64,000 bases of DNA from Promethearchaeota archaeon (GTDB lineage Archaea; Asgardarchaeota; Lokiarchaeia; Sigyniarchaeales; SOKP01): the NCBI GenBank assembly GCA_019058245.1, contig JAHPZJ010000013.1, positions 393,166 through 457,165 on the forward strand, in the 5' to 3' direction. Made by a program: the position numbers and the translations under genes. The notes beneath the pieces were generated by a model that was not told where the DNA came from, ran no database searches, and saw only the letters and a list, made by a program, of their open reading frames with translations. Positions 4,838 through 44,989 of this stretch are shown in pieces (position 1 is the first letter of the stretch; every line of letters begins with the position of its first letter).

Positions 4838-5848
4838 GTGAAGAAAATTATAGAAAAAGTTATAGAAAAAAAATATGTAGAAGAGCAGATTTCATCGAAA
4901 TCATTAAGAAAAATGAAATTTCTTCGCTTCTTAAAGTTTTATTTAATTCCCGGTTGGCGAGACCCTGAATTTTCGGCGCAAGAATATGATATTGAAAAAA
5001 TAAAATCTAAAAGGAGATTGTTTCGACACCTTGTTAAACCTCTAACAATAATAGGACTGCTGATGATCTTATTTATTTCAGTATTAGCAATATTTGCACC
5101 TTGGCTTACCATATATCCACTACAAGAGCTAGTAGTACCAAATGTTCCACCTAATCCAGAGGTTTTTGCTCCTCCATCAGCTGATCATCCATTTGGGACA
5201 ACATATAACGGATATGATGTTTTAGCTAGAATTATTTGGGGAGCCAGAACTACAATTTTATCGTCGTTAATACCTTCAATAATATCCATTGGTGGAGGCC
5301 TTGTTTTAGGCATTTTTTCTGCTTATTTCGGTGGGGTTATTGACTATCTCATAATGCGCTTTGTAGACTTATTCTATGCTTTTCCAACACTGATACTTAT
5401 TATTATAGTTACTCCTCTGCTTGGTACTGATTTATTAACCACTCTTATTATTTACGGACTTCTTTTTATACCATATAATATTAGATTCATGCGATCACTT
5501 GTTTTCCAAGTAAAACAACTTGAATACATTCAAGCAGCGAAAGTAGGTGGTGCCCAAAAGTTTAATGTTATGTTTAAACATATATTACCAAATGCAATAT
5601 CCCCTATGTTAGTACTTTTTTTTGGAGGAGCTGCTATCGCAATAATAGGTTTAGCAGGTCTTGCATTTGTAGGATTTTCAGATAATACTGTAGCCAGTTG
5701 GGGTCTTGATATTTTATGGGCTCGAGGTAGGTATAGTAATATCAGTGCTGCTGTTTGGCCAGGATTATTTATTGGAATTGCTGCCATAGGATATATACTC
5801 GTTGGAGATGGATTTCGAGATGCATTAGATCCACGATTAAAATTATAA
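4838..5848 (+). CDS. oppC: Oligopeptide/dipeptide ABC permease (OppC/DppC)
   Basis: PPSADHPFGT, GYDVLARIIWGAR, EYIQAAKVGGA, HILPN, GDGFRDALDPR. Confidence 0.93.
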   Translation: MKKIIEKVIEKKYVEEQISSKSLRKMKFLRFLKFYLIPGWRDPEFSAQEYDIEKIKSKRRLFRHLVKPLTIIGLLMILFISVLAIFAPWLTIYPLQELVVPNVPPNPEVFAPPSADHPFGTTYNGYDVLARIIWGARTTILSSLIPSIISIGGGLVLGIFSAYFGGVIDYLIMRFVDLFYAFPTLILIIIVTPLLGTDLLTTLIIYGLLFIPYNIRFMRSLVFQVKQLEYIQAAKVGGAQKFNVMFKHILPNAISPMLVLFFGGAAIAIIGLAGLAFVGFSDNTVASWGLDILWARGRYSNISAAVWPGLFIGIAAIGYILVGDGFRDALDPRLKL

Positions 5849-5888
5849 AAAAGAGGGATAAAAAGTTTTAAATACTATATATCAAACT

Positions 5889-7766
5889 GTGTTTGGATTA
5901 AATTACGGAAATGCATTAGTTGACTCAATTATTATTGTATTAGTTTTATATTTAATTTCAAACATTGTCAATAGTCAAATTCCTGAGGATCAGCAACTCT
6001 CAAAGAAATTATTTAGGAGAAGTTCAGGAAAAATTTGTATTATTTTATTAGGCATTATCTTTGGCGTTAAATCTCTTTTTGAAACTTTATGGCTTTTCAA
6101 TTCCATATTTTTAGTTTTCAATAATAATGCTGTATCATTCGCTATTATAAGTACAATCTTTTATTTTCTATATAGGAAATTAGAAGAAAAGGATAGTCAA
6201 TTTATTAAAATATTTAAAATTTTTGTTGTAATAACTTGGATAATTGCGATAATTTTTATTTCAATTCCTCTCTTAGGTCTTGAAAGACTTCAAGGGGAAG
6301 AACCAGTACTTATTGACATTTTTTACCTTGGATTTATATTTGCCGGTTTTACAGTTGCGGGGGATATTCTTATCACAATTCTAATTAATAATATTCGTTC
6401 AATTGAGAAGCGAATTCCTAAATTACCTTTAAAGTATTCCATGTTTACTGGTGGACTTATCTCATTTGGAATTTGGTCTATACAATTAATAATCGTTGAA
6501 TTATATTTGAATAGATTATTTGGAGTAATAATATATACTCAAGATATTCGTATATTAATTGGTGTAGTTAGTGGTCTTTATGGTTTCATATGCTATATTT
6601 CGTTGAAAAAGAAATTTATGCCAATTGAAAAGGAAAAAAGTAAGTTAAAAGTTCAAAAAGCATTAGAAATAGTGAAAGATCAATCTTTTAAAGTATCTAA
6701 ATTAAGTAGCAATCACATTATACTTGATGTGAAGGACCTCACTACATACTTTTATACAGAAGAGGGTGTTGTTCGTGCAGTAGAAAATGTTTCTTTTAGA
6801 GTGTACGAAGGTGAAGTTCTTGGTCTTGTAGGTGAAACTGGTTGTGGTAAATCTGTTACTGCATTATCTATTGTTCAACTAATTCGCCCTCCAGGAAAAA
6901 GAGAAACAGGAAAAATTGTTTTCAGTGGAGAAGATCTAGCTTTAAAGTCTGAATTTGAAATACTAAAATATCGTGGAAAGGATATAACTATGATATTTCA
7001 AGATCCACTTAGTTCGCTTAACCCAGTTTTTAAGGTAGGTAAACAAATATCTGAAGTATTTTTATTGCATATGGAAAATGAACTACTTGTCGAAACTACT
7101 AAATTTCCTAATAAAGGTTTATATAGTATTGCTCGAGAATGGAGTATTGCCCTTTTAAAAGATTTAAATATACCATTTCCTGAAATAATTTTTGATAGAT
7201 ACCCTCATGAACTAAGTGGTGGTATGCGACAAAGAGTTCAAATTGCGATGGCATTGGCATGTAGACCTAAATTACTAATTGCTGATGAACCAACTACTGC
7301 GTTAGATGTTACTATACAAAATCAAATTCTTAAACTTATGAAAGAACTTCGTAAGAAATATAATACTAGTATATTATATATCACTCACGATTTAGGCCTT
7401 ATCTCTAAAATGTGTGATCGTGTTGCTGTAATGTATAGTGGATCTATTGTTGAATATGGAGATATAAAGAAATTATTAATTAACCCATATCATCCATATA
7501 CCCGAGGACTTATAGCTTCTGTTCCTGTTATTGGAAAAAGTCAAAAACGGCTTGAAGTGATATCAGGAATGGTTCCAAATCTAATTTATCCACCTTCAGG
7601 ATGTAGATTTCATCCTAGATGCAAATATTGTTTCGAACCTTGTAATTCAATAGTTCCAAAACAAAATAAGGTTGATGAGGATTATTTTGTGGCATGTCAT
7701 CTATACAATCCAGAATATAAACATTTAGCAGAAATTGTTATAGAAAAAGTAGAAGGAGAAATTTAA
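5889..7766 (+). CDS. oppD: OppD/DppD-type ABC ATPase fused to an N-terminal multi-pass membrane domain
   Basis: GETGCGKS Walker A, LSGGM, IADEPTTALD, C-terminal GCRFHPRC; first ~240 aa strongly hydrophobic; exact start uncertain (GTG). Confidence 0.9.
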   Translation: MFGLNYGNALVDSIIIVLVLYLISNIVNSQIPEDQQLSKKLFRRSSGKICIILLGIIFGVKSLFETLWLFNSIFLVFNNNAVSFAIISTIFYFLYRKLEEKDSQFIKIFKIFVVITWIIAIIFISIPLLGLERLQGEEPVLIDIFYLGFIFAGFTVAGDILITILINNIRSIEKRIPKLPLKYSMFTGGLISFGIWSIQLIIVELYLNRLFGVIIYTQDIRILIGVVSGLYGFICYISLKKKFMPIEKEKSKLKVQKALEIVKDQSFKVSKLSSNHIILDVKDLTTYFYTEEGVVRAVENVSFRVYEGEVLGLVGETGCGKSVTALSIVQLIRPPGKRETGKIVFSGEDLALKSEFEILKYRGKDITMIFQDPLSSLNPVFKVGKQISEVFLLHMENELLVETTKFPNKGLYSIAREWSIALLKDLNIPFPEIIFDRYPHELSGGMRQRVQIAMALACRPKLLIADEPTTALDVTIQNQILKLMKELRKKYNTSILYITHDLGLISKMCDRVAVMYSGSIVEYGDIKKLLINPYHPYTRGLIASVPVIGKSQKRLEVISGMVPNLIYPPSGCRFHPRCKYCFEPCNSIVPKQNKVDEDYFVACHLYNPEYKHLAEIVIEKVEGEI

Positions 7767-30743: not shown

Positions 30744-31559
30744 TTAATATCGTGGATTTTCTTTATATCTATTAAATAAAACTTTTAATCGATCTTGAGG
30801 CATTCCAAGACGCCATAGTAACGACATTAGTATCCATTTCCAAATAGTTCTGAAGATTCCATATTTTTCAAATCGACGAGTGGAATTATATATCCCGATG
30901 CGGTAGATACATGCAATCCCTTTACCTCCACGCCAATTACTTATACTTTTAGGCAATACTCTTTTTGCAAACTTCATTAGACGTCGACCAAAATCGAAAC
31001 CTTCACAAATCCACATTGGTGCGAATCCATTTAGAGCTTCAAAAACCCATTTCCTTACAAATATAGCATTATCTGCGGGATATGCTTTAAAAGTTTGAAA
31101 TAGTATGTTTCCAACCCAACCAAATGTGTAAACTGCCGTTCGCATAAAGCTATTTGGATTTGAATTATTATCCCATTTCCATTTCTTTGTAAAAGCTCCA
31201 CCAAGTATTAAAGGATTTCTAAGACGGCCAAAGAGCAAAAATAACGTACCAGGTCGAAGTTTTATATCTGCATGAAGAAATAAGAGAATATCAGATTTTG
31301 CAATCTCACCACCAAGATTTGATTGTAGTACTCTTCCTCGAGGAGACTCAATTACGATATCTGCTAACTTTCTCGCGATTTCTTTTGTATTATCAGTAGA
31401 TCCCCCATCACTTACAATAATTTCAATAGGAATGGAAAGACCAGAAGGAAATAGAGCAGCTCTTTTAACTGAAGCAATTGTATCAGCTATATAATTAGCT
31501 TCATTAAGAGTAATAATTATTATACTAATCTTTGGTGAAGTCTTGAACTGAATAGTTAT
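30744..31559 (-). CDS. GT2 glycosyltransferase, TIGR04283-like; extended start at ATA
   Basis: Frame continues 107 codons upstream of the ORF-track start: KISIIIITLNEA...IIVSDGGSTDNT...RGRVLQSNLGG...LLFLHAD; GGAGG SD 6 nt before ATA at 31559; in-frame TAG at 31592-31590. Confidence 0.85.
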   Translation of the reverse strand: MTIQFKTSPKISIIIITLNEANYIADTIASVKRAALFPSGLSIPIEIIVSDGGSTDNTKEIARKLADIVIESPRGRVLQSNLGGEIAKSDILLFLHADIKLRPGTLFLLFGRLRNPLILGGAFTKKWKWDNNSNPNSFMRTAVYTFGWVGNILFQTFKAYPADNAIFVRKWVFEALNGFAPMWICEGFDFGRRLMKFAKRVLPKSISNWRGGKGIACIYRIGIYNSTRRFEKYGIFRTIWKWILMSLLWRLGMPQDRLKVLFNRYKENPRY

Positions 31560-31570
31560 AAAGATCCTCC

Positions 31571-32194
31571 CTAATCTGGTAATTCGAAACTAATTTTATT
31601 TGATAATTTAGAATTCTTAAGGTCATCGAGTACATCAATATCGGAAAGAGTTGGTAATAGAAAATATTTTATACCAAGCTTATTAATATCTGCTATAGTA
31701 TCAGAAAATACGGAGGATGTACTCCACTTTTTATTTATAAACAATTCTTGATGTATTTCTTTAAGTCCCATCAAATAGTATCCTCCATCTTTTGCTGGTC
31801 CCAGTACAACATCATAATTTAGTAGTTGGTCAAATGCTTCATTAATAATCCTAGCAGTTAATTCCAAACAATCGCTTCCTATTATTACAGCTTTACGGTA
31901 TCGTTGTAGCGTGATCCTAAAGGCTTGCAGCATCTTTTCTCCAAAATCAGAACCTTTTTGTAAAAATTTTATAAAGAATTCTTTTTCCCAAAGATCATTC
32001 TCATCGATATAATCCGAATAAAATAATAAACGCGCACATGGAACTTCAAGTGAAATAGATCGTGTGTGTTCAATTAATACTTTATAAACAGTTAAAGCAC
32101 TCTCTTCTCCAATATCTGCAGCTAAACGTGTTTTTACACATCCTATATTAGGATTTCTTACAAGGATTATTAAGCCTTTATCATTCATTTTCAT
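31571..32194 (-). CDS. DUF2064/TIGR04282-like transferase
   Basis: VKTRLAADIG, QKGSDFGEKM, IIGSDC, VLGPAKDGGYYLMG, WSTSSV, LSDID; ATG at 32194 overlaps the upstream TGA stop (ATGA). Confidence 0.88.
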   Translation of the reverse strand: MKMNDKGLIILVRNPNIGCVKTRLAADIGEESALTVYKVLIEHTRSISLEVPCARLLFYSDYIDENDLWEKEFFIKFLQKGSDFGEKMLQAFRITLQRYRKAVIIGSDCLELTARIINEAFDQLLNYDVVLGPAKDGGYYLMGLKEIHQELFINKKWSTSSVFSDTIADINKLGIKYFLLPTLSDIDVLDDLKNSKLSNKISFELPD

Positions 32195-33189
32195 ATAACT
32201 ATTGTTGTGCAATTATTATTTACTCTAACTAGATCTTTTGAGTTTGCTTTTTGCCACTCAAGGTTTATTTCTTCCCCACGACACCAAGGGCAATATTCAT
32301 CATGATTATTTAATTTTCCTCTTATTGCTCGCCTACTAGCGCAACCTCCTTGACATAAACAATCTGCGGCAACTGGAGGGATGGCTTGAGCCATTATAAA
32401 TTGTTGAGTTTCAAAGATTTTTTCACCAAGCTCTAATAGGTCATTGATATCGGGAATGGGTTCAATAGCTTTATTATTTCCCCAATATACACAAGGGATT
32501 ACTTGTCCTTTAGGATTAATTCGTATGCTTTTACGACCACAAGGAGAAAAAATCTCCCCCAGTCCTAGCGCGGCTCTTACAACAGGTTCAAAACAAGAGA
32601 TGACCTTACCTTTGCTAAATAATAGTCGAAATCCCTCCCAGAATTCCTTATAATTAAGCTGATAATCGTCTGTATTTACAGATTGAAAAACACTAACACG
32701 CAAGTTAACTCCATATGAACGGGCAAGATCTACCATCTGGTCCATCTTGTCGTAATTAACAGACATCATTGTAGTAAGTATAGTCAATTCAATACCTGCG
32801 TTATCGCATCGTTTAATAGCCCTATTTACTAATTCCCAATTTCCTTTACCACGAAATTTATCTTGTTCTTGACTCGTAGGGAAATCAATGGAAACTTCAA
32901 TATCATTGAAAAGTTCTAAATATTTATCGGAAAGTCTACTTATAGTCAAACCGTTGGAGGCTAAACTGAGTCGCACATCTCGACAAGCTAAAAAGTTAAG
33001 AATTTCAAGGAATTCTGGATTTAATATATTTTCTCCAGTACCCATCCCTATCGAACTAATAGGTATCGCTTTGCATAGCTTTTGAATTTGTTTTAAAGTA
33101 ATATTAGAGATCTGCGTTTTATCACGATAACAATGTGTACAATTTAAATCACAATTATTGGTTAAACCAATTCCAATTGAATATTTCAT
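32191..33189 (-). CDS. Radical SAM protein with C-terminal SPASM/twitch-like Cys cluster
   Basis: CDLNCTHC; C-terminal CGRKSIRINPKGQVIPC...CLCQGGCASR...YCP. Confidence 0.88.
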   Translation of the reverse strand: MKYSIGIGLTNNCDLNCTHCYRDKTQISNITLKQIQKLCKAIPISSIGMGTGENILNPEFLEILNFLACRDVRLSLASNGLTISRLSDKYLELFNDIEVSIDFPTSQEQDKFRGKGNWELVNRAIKRCDNAGIELTILTTMMSVNYDKMDQMVDLARSYGVNLRVSVFQSVNTDDYQLNYKEFWEGFRLLFSKGKVISCFEPVVRAALGLGEIFSPCGRKSIRINPKGQVIPCVYWGNNKAIEPIPDINDLLELGEKIFETQQFIMAQAIPPVAADCLCQGGCASRRAIRGKLNNHDEYCPWCRGEEINLEWQKANSKDLVRVNNNCTTIVI

Positions 33190-33229
33190 TTATTCCATCT
33201 CCATATATTTAAGATTAAATTACCTCACT

Positions 33230-34051
33230 TTATTGACTAATACCTATTGCGATGAAATATACGATACTCGAGAAGAAATGGTTAAGTTGAAGTCGATTTT
33301 CTAGTTCCAACATCCAAGCATTATACTCTTCTTCTGTGATTATTTTCTGATCTAATGCACCAGATGCAGCGTGTCTAATGGATTGAGTCAACGAGCTATT
33401 TTCATCTGTTGCAATTGAAACTAAAGGACAAATGTTAATATCCTTCAAGCCATTAGCATTGAGCAAACTAAATAATTGTCTACCACTCCAATTGTTCCCA
33501 TCCTTATGATCAGTTCTCCAATGGAGTATTTTGCGCGTTACCTTGCGGTTTGGATGATCAACAGTTAGTGTCTCAAAATCCCAATCCATCAAGGCAATTT
33601 TTCCTCCGGATTTAACAGTGCGAATTAATTCCTCTACAACTCTTAGAGGATCATTTACATGAAGCAATAATCTTGTAGCGAAAACACTATCGAAATTATT
33701 ATCCTGACAAGGAAGATCTTCCGCATCTCCAACCTTAAATTGAATTAAATTAACTAAATTATCTTTACTTGCTTGTTCAAGAGCGAATGATATAATGCCT
33801 GGAGAATTATCGATCCCAGTTATACTTCCTCCCGGTTCAAGAAATGGTGCTATCAACCGAGATAATACTCCACTACCACATCCAACATCTAATAAATGTT
33901 CTCCAGGTTTTGGATTGAGTATATCTCTGAATCTTAAATTGATTTGGACCTGATCTGGATATTTTGAGCGTTTTTCAATATATTCAGCCATTTTTTTTGC
34001 TGTTTCTGGCTTTTTATTTGATTCCTTAGACCATAAGCTTGTTGGAACCAT
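33230..34051 (-). CDS. Class I SAM-dependent methyltransferase (UbiE/Methyltransf_11/31-like)
   Basis: LLDVGCGSG, GIDNS, GDAEDLP, FDSV, VKSGG. Confidence 0.9.
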   Translation of the reverse strand: MVPTSLWSKESNKKPETAKKMAEYIEKRSKYPDQVQINLRFRDILNPKPGEHLLDVGCGSGVLSRLIAPFLEPGGSITGIDNSPGIISFALEQASKDNLVNLIQFKVGDAEDLPCQDNNFDSVFATRLLLHVNDPLRVVEELIRTVKSGGKIALMDWDFETLTVDHPNRKVTRKILHWRTDHKDGNNWSGRQLFSLLNANGLKDINICPLVSIATDENSSLTQSIRHAASGALDQKIITEEEYNAWMLELENRLQLNHFFSSIVYFIAIGISQ

Positions 34052-36957: not shown

Positions 36958-37977
36958 TTAATCTATTATCTTTCTAATTTTTTTATATCTTTTGATATTT
37001 CTTCTAATTATTATAGGAAAATAACATAACTCAAGAAAGAATAATAGTAAAAAAAATTGAATATATACTGAATAGACTATCCAGGAAAATATTAAAAGAA
37101 GAGACAATCCTTCAATAAATATAAGAATCCATATTAGGATTATTAATCTATGATAATATAACCCTCTGATTAGAACATCATTTGTAATTGTATTTTCACA
37201 TGATCGACAGAGTCTATTATCGAATCGTATTTTATTGCCACACTTTGGGCAAAAATATAAATCTTTTTTAATAAAATATAACGTTCCAATTAACGTAGAA
37301 AAGACTAAAATTGAAGAAATAATTGTGGTATAAGATATAATGAATTTATTATAAGTATAGAGAAGTCTGATATTCCCAATCATAATATAATAATCCAATT
37401 CTGGATTATTTTCTGTAATATTAATACAAAAGGCAATTTCACTTAGTTGTTTCTCTTCAAAAATTTCGGTTAAATCAATAGTTTGTTCAAGATCATATTC
37501 TTCCCAAGGGTGTTGTGTAATCTCAGACATGTTGAAGTTATCGATTATTTCTTCGTGGTTAGGTTTATTATTCCAAGTTATCTCAGAATAATTCAAATTT
37601 GATTCAATCAATATTAAATTTAATTCAACATCTTCTACATCAGGACCATTAATATTATGTAAACTGTAAGAAGCAACAACAAGGTGAAGTGCTTCTGTTT
37701 CTTTTGGCAATATTGCAAGGTTATAATGGATAAATACTTCACAGGAATTTCCAAATTCTGTGTTTTTGCTTGAAGGAAAAAAATAATTCACATCAGGATT
37801 GCTTTGGTCCACATGTGTTAAACGGTCTACTTCTAATTCTCTGAGATATTTAGTAGTTATACCAATATTCCCACCAAATAAAGGAATAAAATTAATAATT
37901 AATAGAAAGAAAGATAGGATTGCTAAACTAATAAAAATTACTTTAGTTCTCAAATTCTTAATATATTGTGTTTTCAT
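36958..37977 (-). CDS. Membrane protein: TM + DNRLRE-like domain + TM + Zn ribbon + 2 TM (paralogue 2)
   Basis: HVDQSNPDVNY and EITWNNKP motifs; CPKC...CRSC; paralogue of 38002-39030. Confidence 0.7.
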   Translation of the reverse strand: MKTQYIKNLRTKVIFISLAILSFFLLIINFIPLFGGNIGITTKYLRELEVDRLTHVDQSNPDVNYFFPSSKNTEFGNSCEVFIHYNLAILPKETEALHLVVASYSLHNINGPDVEDVELNLILIESNLNYSEITWNNKPNHEEIIDNFNMSEITQHPWEEYDLEQTIDLTEIFEEKQLSEIAFCINITENNPELDYYIMIGNIRLLYTYNKFIISYTTIISSILVFSTLIGTLYFIKKDLYFCPKCGNKIRFDNRLCRSCENTITNDVLIRGLYYHRLIILIWILIFIEGLSLLLIFSWIVYSVYIQFFLLLFFLELCYFPIIIRRNIKRYKKIRKIID

Positions 37978-38001: not shown

Positions 38002-39030
38002 TTAGTTTTTATAGTTTCTTACTTTTTTACGTATTTTTATCGAAAAGAAAATTATAGAGAAAATTAGTAAAGCTCCAACGATACAACCAATCTCCATAGC
38101 TCCAAAAAAAGGAAGGATGGAATAAAAAATGTTAAAGGATGTGGTTATAAGAAGAAAAATTACCTCAAAAAAAGCAAATATCCATAATAAAATTATTAAT
38201 ATTTGATAGTACAAACTAGTTCTTAGCATTTCATGTTCAAAAGGTTTCTGGCATGATGAACACCATAATTCAGTAAAATTCCTCTTTGTTTTACAATTTG
38301 GACAATAATATATACCTTTTCTCAGATAAACTATTGTTCCAATTAACATAATAAAAATTATAATTGAAGAAATAATTGCTGTATAAGATATAAGAAATTG
38401 TTCATAACTATATAGAAGCTTGATTCCGGATAGATAAACAATATCCTTCAATTCTTCATTATTTTCCGTAATATTAATACAAAAACTAATCTCTGTTTGT
38501 TGTCTTTCTTCAAAAATTTCTGTTAAATCAACGGTTTTTTCAAGATCATAATATTCTACAGTAAAATGATTCCTAATTGCAGAAGCATTTACAGTTTCGA
38601 TTATTTCTTCATGCTTAGGTTTATTATTCCAATTAATTTCGGAAGAATTCCAATTTGAGTCAACCAAAATTAAATTTATTTCAAAATCTTTAATATAAAA
38701 CATATAAGAATAGGATTGAAAACCATTAATCGTAAAATATAACTTTTTTGTTTCTTTTGGTAATGATTGAAGATTAAAATGGACAAAAAATTGACAAGAA
38801 TTTCCAACAATAGTATTATACATTAAATAATTATAATAGTTCATATCTGGATTACTTTGATTTACATATGCTACACGATCCCAGCCTAAATCTCTGGTAT
38901 ATTTAGTAGTTATACCTACATTCCCACTAAAGAAAGGAATAAAATTAATAATCAATAGAAAAGAAGATATGATCGCTAAACTAATAAAAATTACTTTGGT
39001 CCTCAAATTATTGATATTTTGTTTTTTCAT
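38002..39030 (-). CDS. Membrane protein: TM + DNRLRE-like domain + TM + Zn ribbon + 2 TM (paralogue 1)
   Basis: AYVNQSNPDMNY and WNSSEINWNNKP; CPNC...CSSC. Confidence 0.7.
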   Translation of the reverse strand: MKKQNINNLRTKVIFISLAIISSFLLIINFIPFFSGNVGITTKYTRDLGWDRVAYVNQSNPDMNYYNYLMYNTIVGNSCQFFVHFNLQSLPKETKKLYFTINGFQSYSYMFYIKDFEINLILVDSNWNSSEINWNNKPKHEEIIETVNASAIRNHFTVEYYDLEKTVDLTEIFEERQQTEISFCINITENNEELKDIVYLSGIKLLYSYEQFLISYTAIISSIIIFIMLIGTIVYLRKGIYYCPNCKTKRNFTELWCSSCQKPFEHEMLRTSLYYQILIILLWIFAFFEVIFLLITTSFNIFYSILPFFGAMEIGCIVGALLIFSIIFFSIKIRKKVRNYKN

Positions 39031-39041
39031 CTTTATCCCTT

Positions 39042-40391
39042 TTAAATTAATTTATTTGTTTGATATTTATCAATAGAAATGATTGGTTCTAATTCAGGTA
39101 ATTTTTTTTTTGGATTTTTTAATGACTTTAATTCTGATTTAACATCATTTTTAATTTGGGATTTATTCTGGACTTTTGTTATATTTAATAGTTTCAATGT
39201 TCTTTTATAATACCTAATTGCTTTTTGCTTTAAATTTAAATTAACAAAGACTCTTGCCAAATTCCAATAATAGAGAAAATTATCTCTGTATAACTTTATT
39301 GCAGTTAAGAATTTATTTAATGCATTTTTATAATCTTGTTTATAAAAACTTTTAATACCTTGATAGAATATATCTAAAGAATATCTTCTTATAATATTAG
39401 GAGAAAATAGCTTGAGATGATGTTTTTGAATATCTTGAGATAATTGCTCAATCTTTTTTACCATCTTATCTTTCTCAGTTTTAGAAGAAAGTAGTGTTTC
39501 AATCATACCCAAACCATATGATTCAATAGAAGCAAATATTATTTTCTGACTTCCTGGTATTAAAGGGGCTTTTATTAAAGCGTTTAGTAAAATTTCATGA
39601 AATTTATATCTAATTAGAATTTCTGGTAATTCTAAAATTTGAGAGCCATCAAAATCAGCGAAAAATTTAAAATTCTTCATTTCGTCTATAAAGATTTTAA
39701 CAATTAGGGGAGAAATTATTAATGAATCTTTAATCAATTTAAAATTTATTTTTCTATTATCATTTTTTATAAATTTAATTGTCTTTATAAGTAAATTATT
39801 TAAAAGATCTTCTTGTTCTTTTGTAATAAATAAATCTTTAAAATCTATTATCTTATTTATCAATAATTTTTTACGAATACACGTAAAACCTTGAAATATT
39901 TCAACGATATTACTCATTTCTGGCTTATTACACACAAATTCTACAGAAGGGATTGATTCTTTATTATAAAAACTTGTTTGAACTATATTTTCAAATCCAA
40001 TTTTTTCTAAAATTTCCTGCAACAATTGAGGAGGAAAGCAAAATTTATGTTCTAAACCTTCATGAGGAAGACCATATATCCAACTTAAAATATCCTTTTT
40101 TTTTTCATAATCTGAATTTAAATATGTGCGAAAAGCTTTTTCTAAATCAGGAGTCTCTAAGATCAATTTACCCTTGGGTTCTAAAACTCTAAAATATTCA
40201 CTTATAGCATAAATGGATTGGTATAATCCTAAATGCTCAATTAAATGAATTGCCTTTACTTCTTGGCAGGAAAAATCTTCAAACTCAAGATTTACTGCTG
40301 ACATCTTTTTGTCAGCAATTAGATCCTCATAAAGATCTATATTAATGTATTCCGGTTCAAATTGCTTCCCACAACCAATATTCAATTTCAT
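39042..40391 (-). CDS. SAM-dependent methyltransferase-like domain fused to C-terminal TPR repeats
   Basis: KLNIGCG, YINIDL, HLIEHL, RVLEPKG; C-terminal ALNKFLTAIKL..YYWNLARVF...AIRYYKRTLKL. Confidence 0.8.
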   Translation of the reverse strand: MKLNIGCGKQFEPEYINIDLYEDLIADKKMSAVNLEFEDFSCQEVKAIHLIEHLGLYQSIYAISEYFRVLEPKGKLILETPDLEKAFRTYLNSDYEKKKDILSWIYGLPHEGLEHKFCFPPQLLQEILEKIGFENIVQTSFYNKESIPSVEFVCNKPEMSNIVEIFQGFTCIRKKLLINKIIDFKDLFITKEQEDLLNNLLIKTIKFIKNDNRKINFKLIKDSLIISPLIVKIFIDEMKNFKFFADFDGSQILELPEILIRYKFHEILLNALIKAPLIPGSQKIIFASIESYGLGMIETLLSSKTEKDKMVKKIEQLSQDIQKHHLKLFSPNIIRRYSLDIFYQGIKSFYKQDYKNALNKFLTAIKLYRDNFLYYWNLARVFVNLNLKQKAIRYYKRTLKLLNITKVQNKSQIKNDVKSELKSLKNPKKKLPELEPIISIDKYQTNKLI

Positions 40392-40648
40392 TTTTTATCC
40401 TTAAAATCTTTTATACTTATACTAGAATATTTTGTTCCGCGAGCGTATATGGGATCTGTGGTTTTTGAATATAAAATTAAAGTTACATTCCAAAAGAAAA
40501 ATACAAAAATCGTGAGAATTACAATCAACATTAAAGCAAGGATTAATGGATATCGATTTTTAAAAAAAAGAGTATTAGTAATTTCTTTACGTGATAAACC
40601 CAATTCTTTTCCAATCTTGTAAAGTTGTATAATATTTTTATGGATCAA
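40388..40648 (-). CDS. Small single-TM peptide, tandem copy 3 (putative rSAM substrate/precursor)
   Basis: 86 aa; TTG start; stop overlaps the methyltransferase ATG (ATGA); tail YARGTKYSSISIKDFK. Confidence 0.75.
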   Translation of the reverse strand: MIHKNIIQLYKIGKELGLSRKEITNTLFFKNRYPLILALMLIVILTIFVFFFWNVTLILYSKTTDPIYARGTKYSSISIKDFKDKK

Positions 40649-40674
40649 ATTTAATCATCCATTTTTATCACTCA

Positions 40675-40944
40675 TCATTTAATTTTCTTTTTATCTTTAA
40701 AATCTTTCATACTAATACTAGAATATAAAGTTCCACGAGCGTATATGGGATCTGTGGTTTTTGAATATAAAATTAAAGCTACATTCCAAAAGAAAAATGC
40801 AAAAATCGTGAGAATTACAATCAGCATTAAAGCAAGGATTAATGGATATCGATTTTTAAAAAAAAGAGTATTAGTAATTTCTTTACGTGATAAACCCAAT
40901 TCTTTTCCAATCTTGCAAAGTTGTATAATATTTTTATATATCAA
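40675..40944 (-). CDS. Small single-TM peptide, tandem copy 2
   Basis: 89 aa; TTG start after a G-rich SD; tail YARGTLYSSISMKDFK. Confidence 0.75.
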   Translation of the reverse strand: MIYKNIIQLCKIGKELGLSRKEITNTLFFKNRYPLILALMLIVILTIFAFFFWNVALILYSKTTDPIYARGTLYSSISMKDFKDKKKIK

Positions 40945-40946
40945 AT

Positions 40947-41237
40947 TTAAACGCCCCCTTTTGTATAATATATTAGTTTATTTTTATTTTTAAAATCTTT
41001 TATACCAATACTGGAATAATAAGTTCCTTGAGCATATACTGGTTCTTGAGATTTTGCATAAAAGATTAACATTATATTCCAAAAAACAAGTGCAAAAACC
41101 GAGAGAATTACAATCATTATTAAAACAATTACCAATGAATGTCGATTTTTAAAAAAAAGAGTTCTATTGATTTCTTTGTGTGATAATCCTAATTCTTTTC
41201 CAATCTTATACAATTGAACAATATCTTTCAAAACCAA
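40947..41237 (-). CDS. Small single-TM peptide, tandem copy 1
   Basis: 96 aa; TTG start after a GAGGGA SD; tail YAQGTYYSSIGIKDFK. Confidence 0.75.
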   Translation of the reverse strand: MVLKDIVQLYKIGKELGLSHKEINRTLFFKNRHSLVIVLIMIVILSVFALVFWNIMLIFYAKSQEPVYAQGTYYSSIGIKDFKNKNKLIYYTKGGV

Positions 41238-42562: not shown

Positions 42563-43684
42563 TTAAAATAAGATAAAATCACAAGAGGGACATTTCTTTC
42601 TATCTCCTTTTATAATTTTACTACAATTTGGACAAATTTTTATTGAAGGTTTTTTGTTATTTTGTTCACTTTCGATTTGTGCTCTAATTGATAATGCCAT
42701 TGGATCAACAGCTTGAATAATCTTAGGTTTTGTCCTTGCTTCTAACTCATGTAAATAATCTACAATATTTTTCTTTTGAACTTGAGTCTTTTTTGCAATA
42801 GAAGGAATTTTTCCTGCTTGTACGTCATTCACATAACCACTATCAAGTTTTAGAATGTTAAAGCAATTGTGGCATCTGAACACGTTAGAGATTCCTATAT
42901 TAGATGTTTTAGCCCATTGAGACCAACATACCTTATGAGCAACGGTTTCACAGGAAGGACACCTCACTATACCTTCATTACCTTGCTGAAAGCAAATTGA
43001 ACAAGTAACTGTTTCGTTTACTATTTCAGGTTCATCTGCTAAATTAGTATAAAATGGTTGATTATCAGGTAAGATCATTCTTAATCGTTGCTTGATAAAT
43101 GAAGGTTCTGATACATATTTTTTCTCTGAAAGATTAGTTAAAATGGGATTTAACTCTTTAAGTTTAGAAATTTCATGCAAACTCCCATTGCATAATTTTA
43201 CTAGTCTGATTAATTTAGAATGCAATTCTGGATTAGGGTCTCCAACTCTTACGATATCAATAAAAAGAGGCATATCTTTTACAACTTTAATTAGTTCTTC
43301 TATTGGTGGAAGATATTCTGGAGGGATATTATAGGCTCCTTTATCTATTAAAATTATTAATCGAAATATTTTTTCTGAAATTTTTTTATATACCTCAATA
43401 ATAAATGTTATTGCTAAGAATATCCCCCCCGCAATATTTGCATTAGTAATGTGTCCAGCCAATGATTTTAATGTATCAAGAATAATATCTGGATTAAATG
43501 TAAAATGTTCCAAATAATTTGGTCCTTCATTTTTAAATACAATAAGATTAAATCGATCAGATGGATCAATACTTTGTTTATTTTTCATAAATTCTGATAT
43601 TGAATTATAGACCTGACGTAATTTAATTATATTTGGAGTGAAACCATAAAAAATGAGACAATCTTCGCTTTTTGTGGATTCCAT
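42563..43684 (-). CDS. vWA-like domain + C4HC3 (PHD/RING-variant) finger + C-terminal Zn ribbon
   Basis: alpha/beta N-terminal domain; CSIC-x10-CPSC-x4-H-x2-C-x17-CHNC; terminal CPNC...CPSC. Confidence 0.75.
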   Translation of the reverse strand: MESTKSEDCLIFYGFTPNIIKLRQVYNSISEFMKNKQSIDPSDRFNLIVFKNEGPNYLEHFTFNPDIILDTLKSLAGHITNANIAGGIFLAITFIIEVYKKISEKIFRLIILIDKGAYNIPPEYLPPIEELIKVVKDMPLFIDIVRVGDPNPELHSKLIRLVKLCNGSLHEISKLKELNPILTNLSEKKYVSEPSFIKQRLRMILPDNQPFYTNLADEPEIVNETVTCSICFQQGNEGIVRCPSCETVAHKVCWSQWAKTSNIGISNVFRCHNCFNILKLDSGYVNDVQAGKIPSIAKKTQVQKKNIVDYLHELEARTKPKIIQAVDPMALSIRAQIESEQNNKKPSIKICPNCSKIIKGDRKKCPSCDFILF

Positions 43685-43912: not shown

Positions 43913-44989
43913 TTAACGTTTTTTTTTCTTACTTTTCTTTTTTGAACTTTCAGGCTCTTCTTTCTTCGTTTCAATCATTGCCCTTACATCAGATGCGAAT
44001 GGATCTTCAGTTTGTATGACTTGTGGTGTGCTCTGAGCTTCAATTTCTCGTAAATAATCAACTATATCTTTCTTTTTCATCTTATTTAATTCAGCAATTG
44101 TGGGAATTTTACCTGCTTGTACATCATTAATATAATTCTTATCTAATTTTAAGATATTAAAACAATTGTGACAACGATATACATGTGGAATTCCAATATG
44201 AGAGGTTTGTGCCCATTGTGCCCAACATACTTCATGGGCAACTGTTTGACATGATGGACATCTTATGAGCCCTTCATTACCCTGTTGAAAGCAAATTGAA
44301 CAAGTTGAAATATCAGTAACTCTCTCAGGTTCATCAGCTAAATTTATATAAAACATTTGATTTTCCTCTGGTATCCTACGAATTTCTTGCTTGCTAAACG
44401 CGGGTTGTATAATTTTTTTTTTATATGAAAGTTCCATTAGTAGAGGATCTAACTCATCAATACTACTAATCTCATAGAATTCTCCTTTAGTTAAATTCAC
44501 TAATTTATTCAACCTATTACGCTCTTCATAATCTGGTTGCCCTATATATATAACATCAATAAAAAACGGCATATCTTTAACTTTATTAATTAATTCTTCT
44601 AAAGCAGGAAGGTATTGGGATGGAATTGCATATGCACCATCATCTACTATGATTAAAAGACGAAAGATCTTCTCTGAGATTTTTTTATATACTTCTATTA
44701 TAAATGTAGTTGCTACGAATACACCACCAGCGATACTTGCTCTGGAAATATTTTTTTCTACTGATTTTAGCATTGATAAAACTAGGTTTGTGTCAAAAGC
44801 AAAATGATCCAAATAATTTGGACCATCAGGAAGAAATAAAATCAAATTAAACCTGTCTGAAGGATCATTAGCTTGCTTTATTTTCATAAACTCTGAAATT
44901 GAATTATAAAGGTCTTTGAATTTTGTTAATTCTGGAGTTAATCCATAAAAAATCAAGCAATCTTCACTCTTGGAGACTTTAAGAGTCAT
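43913..44989 (-). CDS. vWA-like domain + C4HC3 finger, paralogue with Lys-rich tail
   Basis: Close paralogue of 42563-43684; ends SSKKKSKKKKR. Confidence 0.75.
   Translation of the reverse strand: MTLKVSKSEDCLIFYGLTPELTKFKDLYNSISEFMKIKQANDPSDRFNLILFLPDGPNYLDHFAFDTNLVLSMLKSVEKNISRASIAGGVFVATTFIIEVYKKISEKIFRLLIIVDDGAYAIPSQYLPALEELINKVKDMPFFIDVIYIGQPDYEERNRLNKLVNLTKGEFYEISSIDELDPLLMELSYKKKIIQPAFSKQEIRRIPEENQMFYINLADEPERVTDISTCSICFQQGNEGLIRCPSCQTVAHEVCWAQWAQTSHIGIPHVYRCHNCFNILKLDKNYINDVQAGKIPTIAELNKMKKKDIVDYLREIEAQSTPQVIQTEDPFASDVRAMIETKKEEPESSKKKSKKKKR

Follow-up and report, generated by a model that had tools for sequence, protein, structure and literature searches.

Three small proteins with a predicted membrane helix are encoded in tandem in a 64,000-nt stretch of DNA from a Promethearchaeota archaeon (positions 393,166 to 457,165 of contig JAHPZJ010000013.1, assembly GCA_019058245.1; the whole stretch is called the window, and positions are given in its coordinates). 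They are flanked by the gene for a radical S-adenosylmethionine (SAM)/SPASM enzyme on one side and, on the other, by the gene for a protein that combines a methyltransferase with TPR repeats. This arrangement raises the question of whether the small proteins are substrates of the enzyme and, if they are, what is made of them. Our analysis suggests that they are very likely its substrates, and that Tyr74, in an x-Tyr-Ser motif close to the C-terminus, is its predicted and probable target; by analogy, and tentatively, the chemistry could be splicing as carried out by the tyramine spliceases. To the reading as a whole, in which splicease-like modification of Tyr74 yields ketoamides that face outward, we assign a probability of roughly 0.38. 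The cassette most likely works like a spliceotide system, which falls short of showing that it is one.

A profile search for the small proteins recovered 118 homologues, nearly all of 80–100 aa and from Asgard metagenome-assembled genomes, and an exhaustive hidden Markov model search of 1.8 billion representatives gave 67 clusters only, all of 56–174 aa; against Pfam and NCBIfam the three peptides of the window gave no significant match. In an alignment of 35 sequences an invariant N-terminal G-x3-G-L, lying within K-I-G-K-E-L-G-L, is followed by a variable hydrophobic helix and, at the extreme C-terminus, by a core of the form Y-[P/A]-x-G-[T/A/S]-x-Y-S-[S/T] ... K-D-F, in which Tyr68, Gly71 and Tyr74 are invariant; no cysteine is conserved in the peptides. 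The single-chain AlphaFold2 model of copy 2 (predicted local distance difference test (pLDDT) score 79) has two N-terminal helices (residues 2–15 and 20–30) around the invariant motif, a membrane helix at 32–63 and a coil at 64–78 that exposes the core. The possibility that G-x3-G-L belongs to a DNA-binding helix-turn-helix was considered and set aside: the domain has only ~30 residues, and the same motif heads evident precursors in the soluble forms described below.

The gene set is conserved as a unit. The radical SAM gene occurs together with 1–4 small genes and the methyltransferase-TPR gene, sometimes in permuted order, at 33 loci of species-representative genomes, and the enzymes are 58–88% identical to that of the window. 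More distant Asgard families keep this trio (enzyme 46–49% identical, methyltransferase-TPR protein 29–32%), the same linkage is found in further Asgard families with enzymes 41–48% identical, and the motifs are invariant across lineages of 32–50% G+C. A survey of the phylum found the enzyme in 67 of the 301 genomes sampled; within the genus of the window 12 of 22 genomes were positive, and the same 12 were identified by the peptide profile and by the enzyme query. Two cassette types coexist in three genomes. The cassette is accessory; its patchy occurrence resembles that of a biosynthetic or defence-type cluster, and because it is patchy within the genus it does not belong to the housekeeping genes. 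A vertically inherited housekeeping system, which the 58–88% identity of the enzymes might suggest, was rejected on the same patchiness and on the presence of two cassette types in some genomes. In-frame TGA codons in some enzyme matches were considered as selenocysteine and are instead natural stops that had been read through (the ORF (open reading frame) of locus L040, for example, ends before the match does). A search of the literature found no published description of the cassette, a survey of spliceotide diversity (Scott et al. 2022, Chem) lying outside that search. The genomes with two enzymes, all from the genus of the window (G195, G276 and G291), have them on different contigs, one 71–81% and the other 60–63% identical to that of the window.

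The N-terminal motif, a single hydrophobic helix and the tail are common to the three copies, whose protein alignment has a mean column identity of 81% and no internal gaps; copy 1 is 61–63% identical to the other two. A preliminary description of the locus had presented them as triplicated membrane-anchored peptides with a common leader and tail, and the three co-oriented minus-strand ORFs are indeed real. Its figure of ~95% DNA identity for copies 2 and 3 is also correct (94.6%, with 14 of 258 nt different). The concern that the triplication is an assembly artefact was checked in the related loci: arrays of 2–4 paralogues occur in the same context in 25 of the 33, which come from other assemblies, and therefore the array is not an artefact of this kind.

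A metagenome scan with the sister enzyme clade (~50% identity) gave loci in which the neighbouring peptides are soluble, having the same leader motif and a core ...x-Y-G-T-[I/V]-S-x-K-D-F and no membrane helix. One of them, L048, combines two enzymes with five precursors (x = F, Y, L, R and K), and multi-core precursors with 3–4 tandem cores each are found in this clade (L048 and L062). Further Asgard families have, beside an adjacent pair of enzyme and methyltransferase-TPR genes, arrays encoding proteins of 137–178 aa that have a similar leader and two or three hydrophobic segments and, at the C-terminus, x-Y-G-[V/T/I]-[F/Y]; the five tandem paralogues of L133 have A, L, D, R and M at x. Judged from these sequences, leader and core are the conserved parts, between which a membrane helix may or may not be inserted. 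Because repeated cores make sense only for a substrate, they argue that the small proteins are substrates, and the soluble and multi-core forms together support the leader/core layout and disfavour a pure anchor role. The peptides also have the properties of precursors of peptides made by the ribosome and modified after translation (RiPPs), being short, with a conserved leader and with a core at the C-terminus, and encoded beside a putative maturase. Both the leader/membrane helix/core layout and the multi-precursor RiPP logic put forward in the preliminary description are thus supported, the former by sister cassettes that keep leader and core without the helix and the latter by the tandem cores within single precursors and by the peptide-maturase-like enzyme next door.

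Three of the sister loci have details of their own. The soluble precursors of L062 (303-611 and 939-1196), upstream of the radical SAM gene, contain four and three tandem cores of 13–14 residues, with K, K, D and F at x in the four-core protein and K, W and I in the three-core protein. Near the methyltransferase-TPR gene of soluble-type cassettes, L047 encodes a transglutaminase-like protein (cysteine-protease fold) and a LuxE-like acyl-protein synthetase (532-2900), and L048 an AMP-binding enzyme (4972-6363); these extra neighbours may be further tailoring or processing enzymes.

The enzyme itself matched Pfam Radical_SAM (8.7e-23) and SPASM (1.5e-05), both above the cut-offs, and has the cysteines of a radical SAM/SPASM protein: C-x3-C-x2-C at residues 25-32, G-x4-C, Cx2Cx5Cx3C and a final Cys. 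An N-terminal recognition domain is absent. Its top NCBIfam matches were full-length and to peptide maturases, TIGR04103 (Nif11-class maturase 3) with 198 bits and TIGR03913 (GDL-peptide maturase) with 161 bits, scores far below the respective cut-offs of 725 and 592; weaker matches included WgkB, the sactipeptide maturase StsB, the mycofactocin maturase (107 bits) and DynA. A sequence search of the PDB returned only SkfB and a decarboxylase, each matched across the core of the radical SAM domain; the structures solved so far are distant. A tree of 57 SPASM enzymes unites the archaeal sequences in one clade of 28 rows (support 99, starred), within a starred group that also holds a TIGR03913/TIGR04103-like clade and the TIGR04133 clade. 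The small genes flanking the TIGR03913 members that were sampled begin ...L-Y-G or ...P-Y-G.

The sole element kept in all forms of the peptide is x-Tyr-small. The residue after the invariant tyrosine is Ser in 71/71 peptides of the window's family and Gly in 15/18 peptides of the more distant families f9/f15, with Thr, Asn or Ala in a few others; across lineages Gly is the commonest. On a tree of 70 homologues Tyr68, Gly71, Tyr74 and Ser75 underwent no changes, so that both tail tyrosines, on whose conservation the preliminary description made its reading depend, are kept. Its proposal of one hypervariable position needs to be modified: position 73, the x of x-Tyr-Ser, requires 21 changes on this tree, position 70 (the x of Y-P-x-G) also requires 21, many positions of the leader and membrane helix are as variable as position 73, and x is limited to a few classes that are split among paralogues. 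Position 73 is one of two free positions in an otherwise invariant core.

The split among paralogues is regular. A typical multi-copy locus has a single Lys/Arg copy together with Leu copies, and often a Tyr/Phe copy as well. Exactly one Lys/Arg copy was present in 17 of the 25 multi-copy loci and two in none, where shuffling gave 3.2 loci with two or more and reached 17 in just 36 of 10,000 trials; the loci come from related genomes and are not independent, so these figures are descriptive and overstate independence, which takes away from their value for our reading. In families f9/f15 all of the loci (7/7) had exactly one Lys/Arg copy. On starred branches, Lys/Arg at x arose at least six times. 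Copy 2, with Leu, and copy 3, with Lys, are sisters on the tree (100/95, starred), and the nearest relative of copy 1 is the Tyr-type paralogue of L006 (69% identity). A Lys and a Tyr copy in L006, and a Leu and a Phe copy in L012, are likewise sisters that differ by such a switch. The lineages of Lys/Arg, Tyr/Phe and Leu paralogues are old in one cassette type; in the window's type the switches are instead between sisters. Because x can be chosen freely, is kept distinct among co-encoded copies and has repeatedly arisen anew, it behaves like a specificity determinant, by analogy with X in a spliceotide or P1 in a protease inhibitor.

For copies 2 and 3 the preliminary description had stated that the codon before the second tyrosine differs at all three positions. 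This was inexact, as the three changed bases span two codons: Thr72 is changed in its third base (ACT/ACA) and codon 73 in its first two (TTA Leu/AAA Lys). By our own arithmetic, the 14 differences over 258 positions would give ~0.04 runs of three by chance. The Leu/Lys switch (40430-40433 against 40726-40729) takes the form of a block of three neighbouring base changes, AAA against TTT, that could have arisen in a single multi-nucleotide event or by a 3-nt inversion and need not reflect three substitutions made one by one.

The charge distribution predicts, as far as sequence can, that the N-terminus is inside and the tail outside, as in tail-anchored proteins. Single-helix forms have 3.5 Lys plus Arg on the N-terminal flank of the helix against 1.5 on the C-terminal flank (2.6 against 1.0 in f9/f15), and a median of 25 residues follows the helix; the peptides thus have the sequence properties of the tail-anchored class, a single helix no more than ~30 residues from the C-terminus and a predicted cytoplasmic N-terminus. 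The preliminary description had asked whether a cytoplasmic enzyme could reach the tail. The positive-inside rule places the tail outside, which speaks against it; modification in the cytoplasm before insertion is plausible, and was inferred because the helix lies so near the C-terminus.

On these grounds the following sequence of events can be proposed. The substrate would consist of a cytoplasmic two-helix leader with G-x3-G-L, a membrane helix and a core of ~25 residues (Y-[P/A]-x-G-T-x-Y-S-S ... K-D-F). The enzyme would act on the invariant Tyr74 in the cytoplasm, possibly excising the tyrosine and leaving a ketoamide that carries the side chain x, and the protein would then be inserted with its tail outward. 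The methyltransferase-TPR protein would be a second component, for tailoring or for docking, whose part may be to methylate the tail, to bind the leader or to do both. The products may remain membrane-bound and would be tethered, outward-facing ketoamides with Tyr, Leu and Lys side chains, resembling inhibitor warheads of different P1. That protease inhibition is their function is doubtful. The most specific version, in which some Asgard archaea display an encoded panel of membrane-tethered alpha-ketoamide warheads, formed by excision of the tyrosine of x-Tyr-Ser/Gly ahead of insertion, whose Leu, Lys/Arg and Tyr/Phe at x are directed against different classes of protease, the leader being kept as a cytoplasmic domain, is unlikely.

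The methyltransferase-TPR gene accompanies the radical SAM gene at almost every related locus. Its product matched Methyltransf_23 and TPR families of Pfam, all under the gathering score, and gave a confident AlphaFold2 model (pLDDT 91, predicted template modelling (pTM) score 0.88) in which the part beyond the N-terminal domain is helical with TPR repeats. Foldseek returned generic class I SAM methyltransferases only. The top PDB match of the TPR part, Sgt2 (E = 0.001), was considered as a link to the GET pathway and was taken as generic TPR similarity.

The comparison that bears most directly on the chemistry is with the spliceotides (PlpX/PlpY and PcpX, and the binary RhaX, RcsX and RasX). 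The precursors on which PlpX acts are Nif11-like (PMC5995677). Spliceases cut tyramine out at X-Y-G and convert X to a ketoamide residue (PMC11414181, PMC9811515, PMC10533398), and the ketoamide peptides inhibit serine and cysteine proteases in the spliced form only (PMC11626197). As in those systems, the cassette places a radical SAM/SPASM enzyme beside one or several small precursors, and there are multiple cores or multiple precursors; the nearest non-archaeal neighbours of the window enzyme in the tree carry L-Y-G precursors, and the motif is x-Tyr-small with a freely chosen x, being x-Y-G in most archaeal lineages. The helical leader, known here from the model, also recalls the binary spliceases, which are activated by a leader helix (PMC11414181).

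A number of observations weigh against the splicing reading. The archaeal enzymes form a separate clade well under the family cut-offs, beside and not nested in TIGR04103/TIGR03913, so that the window enzyme does not place as a member of the splicease family; moreover, the tree was made by a quick method and leaves the three-way order with TIGR04133 without resolution. That TIGR04103 is the PlpX family is an assumption drawn from the Nif11-like precursors of PlpX (PMC5995677). The window peptides have x-Tyr-Ser where the splice motif is X-Tyr-Gly, which occurs in the other Asgard families and the soluble forms, and our literature search found no report of a splicease that accepts Ser after Tyr. 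Splicing leaves the invariance of Tyr68 and Gly71 unexplained; the methyltransferase has no assigned role, and its Foldseek matches point to no methyl acceptor. No leader peptidase or exporter is conserved in the window or the related loci. A cytoplasmic iron-sulfur enzyme could not reach an outward tail that had not been modified before insertion, which is an assumed step, and hydropathy gives an ambiguous topology for the longer multi-helix forms. The window cassette also differs from the spliceotide systems in that its peptides carry a membrane helix between leader and core, in having a methyltransferase-TPR partner and no PqqD-like Y protein, protease or exporter, and in its Asgard host; its splicing chemistry is a prediction.

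Several of these points would be accommodated if the substrate relation held and the enzyme did something else, such as a Tyr68–Tyr74 crosslink, a cyclophane, epimerisation or hydroxylation, with the methyltransferase adding a methyl group. Such other chemistry is a serious, if less than even, possibility: neither of the two tyrosines nor Gly71 varies across 70 homologues, SPASM enzymes make many types of crosslink and families that do so are among the weaker matches, the window motif is x-Y-S and not X-Y-G, and the enzyme clade stands apart from the splicease-type families. However, the soluble forms lose Gly71 and vary in the spacing between the tyrosines, and the upstream Y-P of the longer forms is well away from the tail, ahead of the last hydrophobic segment; x-Tyr-small is the only element kept throughout. 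The Y-x5-Y crosslink suggested in the preliminary description accordingly finds no specific support, and a freely chosen x beside the target, split among paralogues, fits a residue that is displayed better than one that is crosslinked. It is quite improbable that the small proteins are not substrates at all and act as membrane anchors or regulators whose N-terminal helices dock the TPR domain, recruiting the radical SAM enzyme and the methyltransferase to the membrane for work on another substrate such as an ether lipid. Archaeal radical SAM/SPASM enzymes that modify lipids do exist, in Asgard archaea too (GMGT synthase, PMC11186832), lipid methylation would suit the methyltransferase, the TPR is a protein-binding fold, and the cassette has neither protease nor exporter. 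Yet this explanation does not account for the soluble peptides and multi-core precursors of the sister cassettes, and it leaves the conserved core at the extreme C-terminus and the paralogue-specific x without a role. Homologues of GMGT synthase are defined by a length above 420 aa and a six-helix domain at the N-terminus (PMC11186832); by comparison with that published description the window enzyme, with 374 aa and its CxxxCxxC from residue 25, is not of this type, and its top family matches are peptide maturases and not lipid or haem enzymes.

A tyrosine-derived redox cofactor, with the core released from its precursor in the manner of PqqA/PqqE or MftA/MftC, would explain the mycofactocin maturase match (107 bits), the invariant tyrosines near the C-terminus and the high conservation of the enzyme across the family (58–88% identity). 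We consider this very improbable, since a single product needs an invariant core, yet x differs among co-encoded paralogues; furthermore, the cassette is accessory (12/22 genomes of the genus), no peptidase, cofactor-dependent dehydrogenase or PqqD-like partner is linked to it, and a membrane anchor is not expected in such a precursor. That the ORFs are chance frames or an assembly duplication in AT-rich DNA, as the 31% G+C of the window and the TTG start of all three might suggest, is hardly conceivable given the 118 homologues of the profile search, the 67 representative clusters of the exhaustive one, motifs that stay invariant across lineages of 32–50% G+C, a conserved gene order and arrays in many independent assemblies.

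Other known systems resemble parts of the cassette. In CrpC/CrpA of Methanococcus voltae (PMC13692751) an archaeal SPASM enzyme likewise modifies a protein encoded next to it, and the product stays a protein; in contrast, the protein modified by CrpC is rich in Cys and receives thioether (ranthionine) links, and CrpC is predicted to contain an RRE domain (PMC13692751), whereas the window peptides lack a conserved Cys and the window enzyme is without an N-terminal extension. The window peptides share with tail-anchored proteins the single helix, the median of 25 residues to the C-terminus and an N-terminal flank richer in Lys/Arg, a likeness limited by the fact that the topology is read from sequence and that the family also includes soluble and multi-helix forms. 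Serpins and the Kazal and Kunitz inhibitors combine a conserved scaffold with a hypervariable P1 that may be basic, aliphatic or aromatic from one paralogue to the next. The likeness of the peptides to these canonical protease inhibitors consists in one switching contact position; there is no relation in sequence or fold, and the inhibitor role is hypothetical.

If splicing does take place, tyramine excision would reach beyond bacteria into archaea and would take in an x-Tyr-Ser site and integral membrane proteins; the leader would persist as a lasting domain, and the product would be displayed instead of being secreted. The sets of paralogues, with one basic, at least one aliphatic and often one aromatic residue at x, re-created several times, predict that x sets specificity. 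The reading would also point to surface chemistry in the Asgard archaea, whose envelope and partner interactions are poorly understood. Even if the chemistry is different, the cassette is a compact three-component system, and its natural soluble sister substrates should ease the assay of an undescribed radical SAM reaction.

The positions of the genes are given in Table 1. On the minus strand, which carries all of the cassette genes, seven genes, from the radical SAM gene to the second DNRLRE/CBM96 gene, are tightly packed, with gaps of 2–26 nt and one 4-nt overlap, where the stop codon of copy 3 runs into the start of the methyltransferase-TPR gene (ATGA). The TTG starts of the three peptide ORFs (40648, 40944 and 41237) each have a G-rich stretch 7–9 nt upstream, and the starts called among the homologues were ATG (47), TTG (17) and GTG (8). 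The source genome (3.09 Mb in 31 contigs) contains these three copies of the peptide only.

Table 1. Genes of the cassette and its neighbours, in coordinates of the window.
Feature	Position	Strand	Basis or remark
Radical SAM/SPASM enzyme, putative maturase, 374 aa	41257..42381	-	Pfam, NCBIfam, cysteine motifs
Small membrane protein copy 1, 96 aa, x = Tyr	40947..41237	-	x codon 41019-41021
Small membrane protein copy 2, 89 aa, x = Leu	40675..40944	-	x codon 40726-40728
Small membrane protein copy 3, 86 aa, x = Lys	40388..40648	-	x codon 40430-40432
Class I SAM methyltransferase (N-terminal) and helical/TPR domain, 449 aa	39042..40391	-	Pfam below gathering score, AlphaFold2
DNRLRE/CBM96-domain membrane proteins with zinc ribbon, two paralogues	38002-39030, 36958-37977	-	follow the methyltransferase-TPR gene
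Two paralogous proteins with Prok-RING/C1-like zinc finger	42563-43684, 43913-44989	-	just upstream of the cassette

The two DNRLRE/CBM96 genes, which follow with gaps of 11 and 24 nt, may be part of the cassette operon; their synteny is confined to the window's cassette type. Orthologues of the Prok-RING/C1-like genes are syntenic in L005-L013, L035, L066 and L072, all with the window's cassette type, and the other type is without them. A second, unrelated radical SAM gene lies at 32191-33189, within another minus-strand cassette (30744-34051), and in the enzyme tree its product sits far off on a very long branch.

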